Positions 4,549 through 27,399 of a stretch of 40,732 nt of DNA are shown piece by piece. A program made the translations under genes and the position numbers. Under the pieces are notes generated by a model. It did not search any database, was not told the DNA's origin, and was given only the letters and a program-made list of their open reading frames with translations. The DNA is from a virus. How positions within the stretch are numbered: position 1 is the first letter of the stretch; every line of letters begins with the position of its first letter. The stretch lies in UHGV virus genome UHGV-0045958; one strand, written 5' to 3'.

Positions 4549-4606
4549 AAAAAGGGCGGCAGAGCAGTCACGGAGTAAAACTGATACCGCCAAACGTCAC
4601 CAGAAA
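4549..4606 (-). ncRNA. dicF: DicF small RNA (ftsZ-targeting sRNA) with intrinsic terminator
   Basis: Minus-strand sequence 5'-TTTCTGGTGACGTTTGGCGGTATCAGTTTTACTCCGTGACTGCTCTGCCGCCCTTTTT-3' matches the recalled DicF sequence, ends in a GC stem plus U-tract, and lies immediately upstream of dicB. Confidence 0.8.
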
Positions 4607-9291: not shown

Positions 9292-9383
9292 TTAAATTTA
9301 GCTCTGTTAAAAATTTAATCCTTAACCGGAGGGATTTCTGCACCCTCAGAACATCAGGAGGCCCCCCCCCAAGGGGGGGGGGG

Positions 9384-9448
9384 NNNNNNNNNNNNNNNNN
9401 NNNNNNNNNNNNNNNNNNNNNNNNNNNNNNNNNNNNNNNNNNNNNNNN
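9384..9448. other. assembly gap (65 N) flanked by C/G homopolymer hairpin sequence
   Basis: N-run; flanks gccccccccc aagggggggggggg / gggagggggggg. Confidence 0.95.
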
Positions 9449-9467
9449 GGGAGGGGGGGGTAGTTAA

Positions 9468-9650
9468 ATGCGAAAGTTTAAAATAATTATTGAAACGGGA
9501 ATAGCCGGTGGAGATTTCGAGGATGAATTCGAAGTGGATGATGATGCGACGCCTGATGAAATACATGACGAAGCAAAAGATATTTTCTTTAACTACTGCA
9601 ATTACTCATATCACGAAATAAAAGACGAAGAGGAAGAACAAAATGGCTGA
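9468..9650 (+). CDS. hypothetical small acidic protein
   Basis: 60-aa ORF; G-rich sequence upstream of ATG; its stop overlaps the next ATG (ATGGCTGA). Confidence 0.4.
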   Translation: MRKFKIIIETGIAGGDFEDEFEVDDDATPDEIHDEAKDIFFNYCNYSYHEIKDEEEEQNG

Positions 9651-9819
9651 TTTTGGTTCAACTAAATACAACGTCAGTTTTGAAGAATGGCATGAACTGT
9701 TAATGGACTATGCAGAGTTACGTGGTGGCAGTGCTGCTGATGCTGAAGCATGGCGTGATGATTATGAAGCAGGAAAAACTCCGGTCGAAGCATATTGTGA
9801 TGAGTGGGGCGATGAATGA
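9643..9819 (+). CDS. hypothetical small acidic protein (58 aa)
   Basis: ORF MADFGSTKYNVSFEEWHELLMDYAELRGGSAADAEAWRDDYEAGKTPVEAYCDEWGDE translated by hand; absent from the track (under 60 aa); overlapping start/stop with neighbours suggests translational coupling. Confidence 0.35.
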   Translation: MADFGSTKYNVSFEEWHELLMDYAELRGGSAADAEAWRDDYEAGKTPVEAYCDEWGDE

Positions 9820-10073
9820 GCGAGGTTAATTATCAGGAAGGGCATGAAACGGCGGGGCAAGCAAAAACAGTGGCATGGCGATATCGCTACGTGAAAAAAA
9901 AGGCGTTACGGACTTTCAGGAGAAGTAGTGGTCTGGTGACTGGAAATATGTACCGAAAAAAGAGGATTGTAACGACAGGCCGAACTATGAAATTCAGGCC
10001 TTATTCACTGCCCCGCCAGTCCCGGTTACATCAGAAGAACTGGTTAAAGCTGTGCACTTTTATGAACAACTAA
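9816..10073 (+). CDS. hypothetical basic ORF, possibly frameshifted (alternative -1 product would end at 10132)
   Basis: ATGA overlap with the upstream ORF; contains two in-frame A_AAA_AAG heptamers (9896-9902, 9956-9962); the -1 frame downstream encodes a more protein-like peptide with no start codon of its own. Confidence 0.25.
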   Translation: MSEVNYQEGHETAGQAKTVAWRYRYVKKKALRTFRRSSGLVTGNMYRKKRIVTTGRTMKFRPYSLPRQSRLHQKNWLKLCTFMNN

Positions 10074-10302
10074 AACGCGAAAATCCACCAGCATCCGGAA
10101 ACCTGATTACAGATTCCCAGATAAGGCAATGAGCTACCTGGCGCAGAACGGGCTGATAAGTATGGGGAATGTTTTACGATGAATATTTAGACTAAAGAGT
10201 TTGTAACGCTATGTAAGTGATTTTTTCTGGTTTAGATATTTATATGTTCGGCCAAATTGAGGTGTGTTTAAATGTAATTGCACATTGATTGTAGGAGGAA
10301 TA

Positions 10303-10482
10303 ATGAAAAACGCATTGCAGTTTTTGTTTGTTGCGTTCTGGTTGTTCGTATCATGTATGCCCATCATCTTCACAGCAAGGTATATGGAAAAAGTTGATGT
10401 TTTGATATTAATATTTGGATATATAAATGCCCTTTTTTTAGGGGTGTTCATGGCGGTCATGTGCATTGAATACTGGCGGTAA
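10303..10482 (+). CDS. small hydrophobic membrane protein (59 aa, two predicted TM segments)
   Basis: Strong RBS (GTAGGAGGAATAATG); product MKNALQFLFVAFWLFVSCMPIIFTARYMEKVDVLILIFGYINALFLGVFMAVMCIEYWR; lies in an AT-rich island. Confidence 0.45.
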   Translation: MKNALQFLFVAFWLFVSCMPIIFTARYMEKVDVLILIFGYINALFLGVFMAVMCIEYWR

Positions 10483-10559: not shown

Positions 10560-10741
10560 TAGAATGACTGCGGGTGCTTGAGGCTATCTGTCTCAGGCAT
10601 GAACACCAAAAGGCAGATAGAGAAAAGCCCCAGTTAACATTACGCGTCCTGCAAGACGCTTAACATTAATCTGAGGCTCAATCTATGAACGGCAAATCTA
10701 GGTTAGCCTCTTACGTGCCGAAAGGCAAGGAGAAGCAGGCT
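10560..10741. promoter_or_regulatory. hok mRNA leader with in-frame mok-like upstream start (ATG 10685); expected location of an antisense Sok-like RNA
   Basis: Inferred from hok-family type I toxin-antitoxin organisation; the ORF from 10685 extends hok by 19 codons in frame; no Sok sequence was verified. Confidence 0.3.
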
Positions 10742-10897
10742 ATGAAGCAGCAAAAGGCGATGTTAATCGCCCTGATCGTCATCTGTTTAACCGTCATTGT
10801 GACGGCACTGGTAACGAGGAAAGACCTCTGCGAGGTACGAATCCGAACCGGCCAGACGGAGGTCGCTGTCTTCACAGCTTACGAACCTGAGGAGTAA
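10742..10897 (+). CDS. hokD: Hok/Gef-family type I toxin (HokD/RelF-like)
   Basis: 51-aa product MKQQKAMLIALIVICLTVIVTALVTRKDLCEVRIRTGQTEVAVFTAYEPEE matches recalled HokD (RelF); AAGGAG RBS upstream. Confidence 0.8.
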   Translation: MKQQKAMLIALIVICLTVIVTALVTRKDLCEVRIRTGQTEVAVFTAYEPEE

Positions 10898-13745: not shown

Positions 13746-13821
13746 GGCCCTTTAGCTCAGTGGTGAGAGCGAGCGACTCATAATCGCCAGGTCGCTGGTT
13801 CAAATCCAGCAAGGGCCACCA
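13746..13821 (+). tRNA. ileZ: tRNA-Ile2 (CAU anticodon; ileX/ileZ-like), possibly tRNA-Met
   Basis: 76-nt cloverleaf GGCCCUU..AGCUCAGUGGUGAGAGC..CUCAUAA..GGUCGCUGGUUCAAAUCCAGCAAGGGCCACCA with encoded CCA; very similar to recalled E. coli ileX. Confidence 0.8.
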
Positions 13822-14163: not shown

Positions 14164-14364
14164 ATTGTCTGGCTGCCGGAGAATTTGTTAAAAATTACAT
14201 CGCATGGTGAATCCCCCTCAGCGGCGGGGCATCTGGCAAAGTGTATGATCCAGAGAACATGCAAATTCAGTAGACAGGCTGAATTTACCGGGAGGCCCCT
14301 GGCACCATGCGACAGACAGAAATTAGGCTATACTTCAGCCCCTCTCCGGAGGGGCTTTTCTGTG
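14164..14364 (+). repeat. structured terminator-capped element, copy A (candidate sRNA or late-leader element)
   Basis: Shares with copy B a promoter-like 5' block, the gcatggtg/caccatgc long-range complement, a ccgggaggc block and an identical AGCCCCTC-tccg-GAGGGGCT terminator followed by a T-tract. Confidence 0.5.
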
Positions 14365-14632
14365 CAGGATGTGTCACAGTTTCCTGAATTCTGAGTACTG
14401 TCCTGTTACTCAGGGTGCTATATTTTCTGACGTGATGAAAGTCTGCCGGAAGGCGGAACGTATCGGAAATGACCCAGTAGAGAAAACGTTGACTCAGATA
14501 CCGATGCTGAGTTACCGGGAAACCGGCATCACATGACCGCTATCCTTCCAGGCTCGCTCCGGCGGGCCTTTTTACTGCAGAAAACAGTTTTCCCGTAAAA
14601 TGCCACGTTGCTCATAATTCAGGCTGGCGATT

Positions 14633-14830
14633 ATTGTCTGGCCGGCGGGAAGTTTGTTAAAAAATTTCGCATGGTGAATCCCCCTGTGCGGAGGGGTAAT
14701 CAGCGAGTAGGTATATGGGATAATCGCGGATTCAGGTGCTGGTACTGAATTCACCGGGAGGCACCCGGCACCATGCAATGGCACATAGCGCCACTCTCCA
14801 GCCCCTCTCCGGAGGGGCTGTTTATATTGA
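14633..14830 (+). repeat. structured terminator-capped element, copy B
   Basis: Imperfect duplicate of copy A with the same terminal hairpin (14800-14819). Confidence 0.5.
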
Positions 14831-26006: not shown

Positions 26007-26711
26007 ATGTCCTCTAATTTTGAGCGTTCGCAACTGACGAAAATTATGATTTCGTCTGCACCGGTAACAGCAGAAACCCTGGATTCTGCCAGCTATCTTG
26101 GCCTGAGCTGTACAATCAAAGAGGTGCAGTTTACCGCAGGACAAAAGCAGGATATTGATGTCACCACGCTGTATTCTGTTGAGCAGGAAAATATTAACGG
26201 TCTTGGGGCTGCTTCAGAGATTTCCATGTCAGGCAACTTTTATCTGAATGCTGCCCAGAACGCGTTGCGCAGTGCCTATGACAATGACACCACGTATGGC
26301 TTTAAAGTTATTTTTCCGTCAGGCAACGGATTTACCTTTATGGCAGAGGTGCGTCAGCATACCTGGTCTGCAGGAACCAATGGTGTTGTGGCTGCAACGT
26401 TTTCTCTGCGCCTGAAAGGTAAGCCTGTGCTGACGACAGAGCAGCTGAAAGTGAAGGTCGATTTAAAAAGCACGCTGCGGGTTGCTTCCGGAGCGAAACT
26501 TGAAATGGCGGTTGAGGGTGTGGGTGGTGTGCCGCCTTATTCTTATGCCTGGAAAAAAGGTGGTTCTCCTGTTTCCGGACAGACGGCGGCAACGTTCAGT
26601 AAGGCATCAGCAGCATCCGGTGATGCCGGTGCGTATACCTGCGAGATTTCTGATTCAGCGAGCCCGGTTAACAAAGTGACCTCCACTTCCTGCACTGTAA
26701 CCGTCAGTTAA
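26007..26711 (+). CDS. major tail protein with C-terminal Ig-like domain
   Basis: 234 aa; lambda V-like; the C-terminal ~90 aa look like a Big_2-type domain. Confidence 0.85.
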   Translation: MSSNFERSQLTKIMISSAPVTAETLDSASYLGLSCTIKEVQFTAGQKQDIDVTTLYSVEQENINGLGAASEISMSGNFYLNAAQNALRSAYDNDTTYGFKVIFPSGNGFTFMAEVRQHTWSAGTNGVVAATFSLRLKGKPVLTTEQLKVKVDLKSTLRVASGAKLEMAVEGVGGVPPYSYAWKKGGSPVSGQTAATFSKASAASGDAGAYTCEISDSASPVNKVTSTSCTVTVS

Positions 26712-27097
26712 TGAGGATGGATGTGATGACTAAAAATATCCGTAATCTGGCACTGGCAACGATGTCGGGGTTTCGCCATAAAACCGTTGATGTGCCTGAA
26801 TGGGAGGGAGCAACGGTTGTGTTACGGGAACCTTCTGCAGAAGCCTGGTTGCGCTGGCAGGAGATCGTTAAAGCAAAAGATGATGAGACACCGTTATCCG
26901 TTGCGGAGCGCGCCCGCCGAAATCTGGAGGCAGATGTTGAACTGTTCATTGATGTTCTGTGTGATACCGGACTGCAACCCGTATTTTCAGAGGATGATCG
27001 TGAACAGGTGATTGCCGTGTATGGCCCGGTGCATGCGCGGCTTCTTCGGCAGTCTCTGGAACTGATCAGTGATGCCGGCGAGGTTAAAAAAAAGTAG
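26711..27097 (+). CDS. tail assembly chaperone (G-like)
   Basis: 128 aa ending at the slippery A_AAA_AAG heptamer (27088-27094) directly before its stop. Confidence 0.7.
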   Translation: MRMDVMTKNIRNLALATMSGFRHKTVDVPEWEGATVVLREPSAEAWLRWQEIVKAKDDETPLSVAERARRNLEADVELFIDVLCDTGLQPVFSEDDREQVIAVYGPVHARLLRQSLELISDAGEVKKK

Positions 27098-27399
27098 CGC
27101 TTCCGGGGATGCGTTTTCTGATGATGCTGGCGCTCAGGATGGGGCGCACATTGTCAGAGTTACGCCGGGAAATGTCCGCATCAGAAATCATGATGTGGGC
27201 AGAATTTGACAGGTTCAGCCCGCTGGGGGACGAACGGGCTGATTTCCGGGCTGCCCAGATTGTTTCAGCTATTTACGGTGCGCAGGGGGTCAAAGTGTCA
27301 CTGAATGATGCGCTTCTTCAGTGGGAGAAGGAGCAGACAGAAGGCGCTTCAGATCCATTTGCCGGACTGGAAAACGCGCTTTTAATAGTGTCTCAGTGA
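26711..27399 (+). CDS. tail assembly chaperone G-T fusion made by programmed -1 frameshift
   Basis: The downstream ORF (27109..27399) is in the -1 frame relative to G; slipping at A_AAA_AAG reads through into the T-like frame. Confidence 0.6.

Follow-up and report, generated by a model that had tools for sequence, protein, structure and literature searches.

UHGV-0045958 is a 40,732-nucleotide viral genome sequence, the whole of which is referred to here as the window. Between positions 9468 and 10132 it contains three small open reading frames (ORFs) that are chained by overlapping stop and start codons, and the third of these, ORF3, carries two A_AAA_AAG heptamers in its reading frame next to a -1 frame peptide without its own start codon. 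We consider it very probable that ORF3 and the -1 frame peptide derive from a single gene that has decayed, of which each represents one half, and do not constitute a programmed frameshift. The first-pass annotation of this region had left three alternatives side by side, i.e. a programmed frameshift, an inactivating mutation and a homopolymer error in a draft assembly. It is the second of these that is borne out, the lesions being the first A-run, which has grown from six to eight A residues (A6 to A8), and a TAG codon that had been overlooked.

We suggest the following course of events: (i) the ancestor was a single-frame prophage accessory gene of the phrog_660 family, preceded by two small genes that are still intact and to which its translation was coupled, (ii) this gene was inactivated by the TAG codon at 9926-9928 and by the A6 to A8 expansion of a Lys-Lys run at 9894-9901, the expansion most likely having arisen by replication slippage, and (iii) both lesions were added on top of older deletions of 90 and 61 nucleotides (nt). 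In this scheme both slippery heptamers are by-products of the damage, and ribosomes starting at 9816 make a product of 85 amino acids (aa) of which the last 59 residues are out-of-frame read-through. The features on which the argument turns are the following.

9468-9650, plus strand: ORF1, intact, 60 aa, DUF7167 family (ORF listing; Pfam and PHROGs matches)
9643-9819, plus strand: ORF2, intact, 58 aa, PHROGs family without assigned function (ORF listing; phrog_519 match)
9816-10073, plus strand: ORF3, 85 aa in its present-day form, with ancestral residues only at 1-26 and out-of-frame read-through in the remainder
9816-10182, plus strand: remains of a phrog_660-family prophage gene, now a pseudogene divided among three reading frames
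9894-9901, plus strand: lesion 1, A8 run, a +2 insertion relative to A6 (DNA alignment, allele table)
9926-9928, plus strand: lesion 2, TAG nonsense codon in the ancestral frame; CTG, ATG or TTG in intact genes
9929-10132, plus strand: open stretch of the -1 frame, ancestral coding sequence to about 10095 and then the out-of-frame tail GNLITDSQIRQ after the 61-nt deletion
10072-10096, plus strand: two older deletions relative to the 171-aa gene, with approximate junctions (DNA alignment)
10096-10182, plus strand: relic of the ancestral C-terminus in a third frame, with the original TGA at 10180-10182

Intact homologues carry both halves in one frame

A single-frame protein was rebuilt by joining residues 1-26 of ORF3 to the -1 frame and was used as a search query. 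This search returned 317 relatives, including full-length proteins of 104, 119, 138 and 171 aa. In the intact homologues both halves lie in one continuous frame, as in the 104-aa protein of AVS0744, the 138-aa protein of locus L013 and the 171-aa proteins of DG341-1 and ECCNB12-2. The intact proteins align in a single frame as ...VAWRYRYV-KK-GVTDFQ-E/G-K/N-x-W-x-GDWKYVP-T/K-KEDCNDRPNYEIQALFTAPP..., and among 33 relatives invariant residues flank the break on both sides (W21-V26 upstream; W38, G40-Y44 and K48-F63 downstream). The profile searches are in line with this picture: the rebuilt protein matches phrog_660 over residues 2-99 (E 5.1e-28) and an intact 171-aa relative matches it with an E-value of 1.2e-72, and the actual 85-aa ORF3 matches only over residues 2-31 (E 0.0072).

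The first-pass annotation had proposed that a -1 shift at the second heptamer joins the two parts and had named a comparison of homologous regions for frame conservation as a check. That comparison speaks against the proposal in that the homologues carry both parts in one frame without any shift and the two-frame arrangement is not kept. Neither ORF3 nor its intact relatives match Pfam or NCBIfam, and their matches in PHROGs are confined to families without assigned function. Similarly, a sequence search of the PDB with the ancestral family gave only spurious weak matches to AI-designed TIM barrels, and an AlphaFold2 model of a 171-aa relative, built on a 33-sequence alignment, reached a predicted local distance difference test score (pLDDT) of 53.9 and a predicted template modelling score (pTM) of 0.30 and was too poor for a fold search.

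Lesions and the phase of the heptamers

The relic runs through the ancestral frame from 9816 to 9893, through a frame shifted by +2 from 9902 to 10095 and through a third frame, which holds the last 28 codons, from 10096 to 10182. At lesion 1 the intact genes read GTG AAA AAA GGC (V-K-K-G) with an A6 run, and the window has A8. The older deletions in the lineage of the window comprise 90 nt in frame near 10072/10073 and 61 nt, which change the frame, near 10095/10096; these positions are approximate owing to microhomology that flanks the junctions. In the third frame, 15 of 26 residues encoded by 10096-10182 are identical to residues 146-171 of the 171-aa relative P0025 (pairwise E 4e-9). Because the 61-nt deletion left the C-terminus in this third frame, the last 11 residues of the -1 frame peptide (GNLITDSQIRQ) are out of frame. 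Thus, the C-terminal peptide that had been singled out as more protein-like is real coding sequence without its own start up to these 11 residues, and the remainder is not.

The equivalent of 9816-10132 is annotated by RefSeq/PGAP as a pseudogene ('frameshifted; internal stop') in M217, CFT073, DS26-1, RM10042 and others, and this label is present in every window-like genome examined. The ORF3 locus is, in other words, already known as a RefSeq-annotated multi-lesion prophage pseudogene, and it implies nothing new in terms of biology.

AAAAAAG occurs at 9896-9902 and at 9956-9962. Since the codon starts of ORF3 are the positions divisible by 3, both copies are A_AAA_AAG in the X_XXY_YYZ phase of ORF3, and the coordinates and phase given by the first-pass annotation are correct for both. 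Its peptide, EDCNDRPNYEIQ...SQIRQ, is also exactly what the -1 frame encodes, with TGA at 10130-10132 as terminator. The first site is more than a heptamer: it is the A8 run at 9894-9901, so that the first heptamer is part of the mutated A-run itself. Following a shift at this site, the -1 frame meets the TAG at 9926-9928 and is closed by it; only the stretch 9929-10132, across the second site, is open.

The second heptamer has an ordinary counterpart in intact genes. In the 138-aa gene of L013 it reads CCG AAA AAA GAG in phase 0 (Lys-Lys-Glu), and three of the four intact genes read ACA AAA GAG at this site. Its phase is 0 in A6, 1 in A7 and 2 in A8 alleles; the +2 shift upstream therefore moves an ancestral AAA-AAA-GAG from phase 0 to phase 2, which is X_XXY_YYZ. 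The recoding-like geometry is specific to one allele and follows automatically from the lesion. Across both strands of the window AAAAAAG occurs 17 times compared with 8.8 +/- 3.0 times in shuffled sequences, a count of 17 being attained in a single shuffle out of 100. Enrichment of the motif is mild and concerns the window as a whole, and the presence of a pair within one 85-codon ORF is due to ancestry and not to selection for slippage.

Distribution of alleles among E. coli genomes

Alleles were counted by blastn with queries of 40-43 nt against 20,395 complete-genome records, and the band of at least 99% identity was taken as an exact match; megablast was set aside, as its low-complexity filter would by our own estimate probably mask A7 and A8 runs. 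Exact alleles were found in 665 records for A6, 61 for A7, 584 for A8 and 1 for A9, and A6 together with the TAG was found in 474 records by an exact 56-mer match. The loci that were read fall into the following states, given with their A-run, the codon at lesion 2 and the length of the resulting ORF.

Intact (AVS0744, DG341-1, ECCNB12-2, L013): A6; CTG, ATG or TTG; 104-171 aa
A6 + TAG (RM10042, PhiR42_1, 300709): A6; TAG; 36 aa
A7 + TAG (DS26-1, CP53, CFSAN061770, IBS28): A7; TAG; 40 aa
A8 + TAG (window, M217, CFT073): A8; TAG; 85 aa

In all four A7 loci that were read the ORF ends at 40 aa and stops short of the second heptamer; the two-frame geometry is therefore not conserved. The TAG is found on A6, A7 and A8 alike while every TAG-free gene has A6, and for this reason the most economical order of events would be that the nonsense mutation came first and was followed by drift in run length. 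Val4 and Thr18 are common to the A7 and A8 alleles, and Ile4 and Pro18 are found in the A6 + TAG alleles and in the intact genes. The sharing of Val4 and Thr18 by the expanded alleles fits with an expansion of the run within a single sub-lineage. Relaxed constraint is also visible on the TAG background, on which run length varies from A6 to A9 and on which RM10042-type alleles have extra stop codons and a 4-nt deletion.

One further candidate for an intact allele was P0007 (L014 310-639, Logan contig ERR13094092_9664), which appears to have Gln at the position of the TAG. Its DNA has TAG twice, and it was rejected as evidence for a CAG ancestor; the database translation disagrees with the standard bacterial code. 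P0007 is a gene-calling artefact that gives a pseudogene an intact look.

Alternative explanations

A recoding signal was sought at both heptamers. The 70 nt downstream fold no better than shuffled sequences (z +0.31 for the site at 9896-9902 and -0.49 for that at 9956-9962), pseudoknots lying outside the folding model, and inspection by eye of the 8-14 nt upstream of either heptamer, the spacing used in dnaX, gave no GGAGG-like Shine-Dalgarno element. In an E. coli reporter study the background without motif and without stimulator was 0.055% and motifs without stimulator reached 2.1-10 times this background; A_AA.A_AA.G was among the best motifs only with stimulators present (PMC4066793). On the strength of these values for unstimulated motifs we suggest that a slip at 9956-9962 would be incidental and well under 1%. 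Such a slip is predicted to give the junction ...GNMYRKK-EDCNDRP... (MYRKKEDCNDRPNYEIQALF). In the predicted transframe product, out-of-frame sequence takes the place of 18 ancestral residues, among them the invariant W38, G40, D41, W42, K43 and Y44, and the product is left without the invariant WxGDWKY block of the family.

Several points nevertheless weigh against reading ORF3 as a decayed gene. A_AAA_AAG is intrinsically among the most shift-prone heptamers in E. coli (PMC4066793), and some transframe product is likely to be made at it, as judged from the reporter measurements. The A8 + TAG allele is common (584 records), and its shifted frame happens to take ribosomes beyond the TAG. As for the allele counts, they derive from clinical clones that have been sampled heavily and are not numbers of independent events. 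Finally, two rare alleles, L016 and L017 (801-1118 in each), carry different, independent second-site +1 insertions on the A8 + TAG background, an extra T right after the TAG in L016 and an extra A in CCGAAC in L017, and re-open an ORF of 105 aa; these insertions might point to selection still acting on the C-terminal part. Both alleles came to light in a protein search with a bias towards long ORFs, and their number is very small against the many genomes sequenced. We treat the insertions as chance events; a compensatory change or a sequencing error is also conceivable.

One alternative explanation is programmed or selected recoding of the 'saviour indel' type, in which the +2 expansion bypasses the TAG and a -1 slip at 9956-9962 regains the ancestral frame. 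The result would be a low-level chimeric protein of 105 aa with the conserved C-terminal half, and L016 and L017 would then be a fixed version of the rescue. The geometry suits this exactly: the heptamer is in phase and the open stretch of the -1 frame (9929-10132) spans it; the rare alleles achieve the same rescue by +1 insertions at the DNA level, and A8 is the commonest TAG-bearing allele. Moreover, corrective frameshifting and saviour indels are a recognised class (PMC5009743), and A_AAA_AAG is a top-ranked slippery motif in E. coli (PMC4066793). However, the heptamer is older than the lesions and consists of ordinary Lys-Lys-Glu codons in intact genes, no stimulatory structure was found and unstimulated motifs reach only 2.1-10 times the 0.055% background (PMC4066793), and the product would lose W38, G40, D41, W42, K43 and Y44 and would end in 11 residues that are an out-of-frame leftover of an older deletion. 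Furthermore, A6 + TAG and A7 + TAG alleles persist in hundreds of genomes in which such a rescue is impossible. Taking the single-frame homologues, the stimulators that were sought and not found and the geometry that is not conserved among alleles together, we regard the programmed-frameshift alternative of the first-pass annotation as not supported, and recoding in either its programmed or its selected form as highly improbable.

Alternatively, ORF3 could be a phase-variable (contingency) gene, or the frame could be restored by transcriptional slippage, so that either the length of the run in the DNA or polymerase slippage on A8 would bring back the ancestral frame. The run is indeed polymorphic in the population, from A6 to A9. 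Long A-runs are polymerase slippage sites, and efficient slippage usually needs nine or more A or T residues; the run here is only A8, and transcripts with one A fewer (A7) stop at 40 aa. More importantly, restoring the ancestral frame (A6 or A9) leads to the TAG eight codons on and to a peptide of 36-37 aa. The TAG lineage thus has no ON state, and the intact alleles examined are all A6. Slippage at the A8 run as a means of rescue, whether by RNA polymerase or by the ribosome, was rejected in the same way: the restored frame meets the TAG eight codons later. We rate this explanation as slightly less credible still.

That A8 is a homopolymer error of the draft assembly, with a true run of different length and an intact gene, is excluded as far as public assemblies can show: the window is a draft, and an N run between aberrant poly-C and poly-G tracts lies only 20 bases ahead of ORF1, but 9455-10250 aligns gap-free to many complete E. 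coli chromosomes such as M217, with a single mismatch at 9458 beside the N gap and every base of 9459-10250 identical, 586 complete-genome records are at least 99% identical in a 341-nt search, the exact A8 42-mer is present in 584 complete-genome records, and the TAG at 9926-9928 would remain even with the run corrected.

Relation to known systems

The decayed-gene interpretation places ORF3 beside the PGAP-flagged frameshift and nonsense pseudogenes of defective or mosaic lambdoid prophages in E. coli, with which it shares a single-frame ancestor, identifiable lesions and lesion states that vary between strains. Nothing substantive sets it apart from them; here, the +2 shift bypasses the TAG and puts the Lys-Lys-Glu codons in slippery phase. 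The locus also resembles dnaX and the G/GT frameshifts of phages in having A_AAA_AAG in X_XXY_YYZ phase and an overlapping -1 ORF without a start. It differs from dnaX in that neither the Shine-Dalgarno-like element that precedes the dnaX site nor the stem-loop that follows it was found here. In G/GT the site keeps its position from phage to phage and the -1 ORF represents a distinct conserved family, whereas the homologues of ORF3 are single-frame and the geometry is allele-specific.

The window itself contains what looks, on sequence, like a genuine programmed -1 frameshift site of the G/GT type of long-tailed phages at 27088-27094, and this site serves as a positive control. The tail assembly chaperone ORF at 26711-27097 (plus strand; Phage_TAC_1, E 2.7e-58) ends in ...A_AAA_AAG TAG at 27088-27097, and the -1 frame at 27091-27396, which has no start of its own, encodes a minor tail protein T domain (Phage_tail_T, E 2.2e-19). 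In contrast to the ORF3 heptamers, this heptamer lies at the very end of the zero-frame ORF and the -1 frame holds a distinct conserved family.

A third comparison is with the herpesvirus thymidine kinase, in which a G-run provides an example of a saviour indel plus compensatory frameshifting (PMC5009743). As in that gene, a homopolymer indel inactivates ORF3, and low-level slippage could give a trace of full-length product. The two cases differ in that there is no evidence of benefit or selection for ORF3, which has a second, independent nonsense lesion and the rescued product of which would be without invariant residues.

These comparisons carry a caution for the annotation of phage genomes. 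A homopolymer indel can drop Lys-Lys codons into X_XXY_YYZ phase beside a -1 ORF without a start and in this way mimic programmed frameshifting, and the present case is settled by comparing alleles, i.e. intact genes with genes in different lesion states. In phage records, naive gene calling still has the 85-aa read-through ORF down as a protein, and one database 'protein' reads the TAG as Gln.

Setting of the cluster and neighbouring features

The region belongs to a lambdoid prophage of Escherichia coli. In M217 the gene order is Cro/CI, YdaT, a replication-region protein, DUF977, a hypothetical protein, DUF7167 (ORF1), a hypothetical protein (ORF2), the pseudogene, hokD, a hypothetical protein, DUF968, RusA and an antiterminator. 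This order places the cluster in the early region, with the replication genes on one side and Q on the other.

ORF1 matches Pfam DUF7167 (PF23768) with an E-value of 7.9e-15 and 55.1 bits, above the gathering cut-off of 24.4, and phrog_1997 in a profile search (E 9e-31); its counterpart in M217 is WP_001224662.1. ORF2 matches phrog_519 (E 4.5e-23), has no match in Pfam or NCBIfam and is annotated in M217 as WP_000753060.1. Both junctions reported by the first-pass annotation are present as described. At that between ORF1 and ORF2, ATGGCTGA at 9643-9650, the ATG of ORF2 occupies 9643-9645 and the TGA of ORF1 9648-9650; at that between ORF2 and ORF3, ATGA at 9816-9819, the ATG of ORF3 occupies 9816-9818 and the TGA of ORF2 9817-9819. 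Loci in which the third gene is intact have these overlaps of 8 and 4 nt in identical places. In AVS0744 the intact 104-aa gene (WP_001529162.1) is preceded by the same DUF7167 protein (ORF1) and by a 58-aa homologue of ORF2, again with overlaps of 8 and 4 nt, and for this reason the chained layout is ancestral and a case of ordinary translational coupling.

In RM10042 and 300709, both of which have the A6 + TAG allele, the DUF7167 gene equivalent to ORF1 (169-351 in L005 and 42-224 in L011) likewise carries a pseudogene annotation with an internal stop, so that in some lineages decay extends to the small-gene cluster as a whole. Just upstream of ORF1 the window has an assembly artefact at 9363-9460 with an N run at 9384-9448 between poly-C and poly-G tracts, where complete genomes have a short GC-rich hairpin (GGCCGCCCGAAAGGGCGG).

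Downstream of the relic, a 59-aa ORF at 10303-10482 (plus strand; MKNALQFLFVAFWLFVSCMPIIF...) is preceded at a distance of 5 nt by a canonical AGGAGG and, by its sequence, resembles a small two-helix membrane protein. It has no match in Pfam or NCBIfam, and the M217 RefSeq record has nothing annotated at its counterpart. Phage record ON470612.1 annotates an ORF on the opposite strand, 10209-10466 (minus strand), as 'hornerin', apparently in error. Next comes a type I toxin-antitoxin module of the hok/sok type at 10572-10897 (plus strand), with an Rfam sok match at 10572-10747 (112 bits) and the Hok toxin ORF inside 10685-10897, annotated as hokD in M217.

The Rfam search gave no RNA family within 9468-10132. 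Elsewhere in the window there are the antisense small RNA DicF at 4554-4605 (minus strand; 76.7 bits), a tRNA-Met (CAT) at 13746-13821 (plus strand) directly downstream of the Q-like antiterminator gene, and two tandem copies of the small RNA STnc100 at 14172-14365 and 14641-14829 (plus strand; 138 and 132.5 bits).

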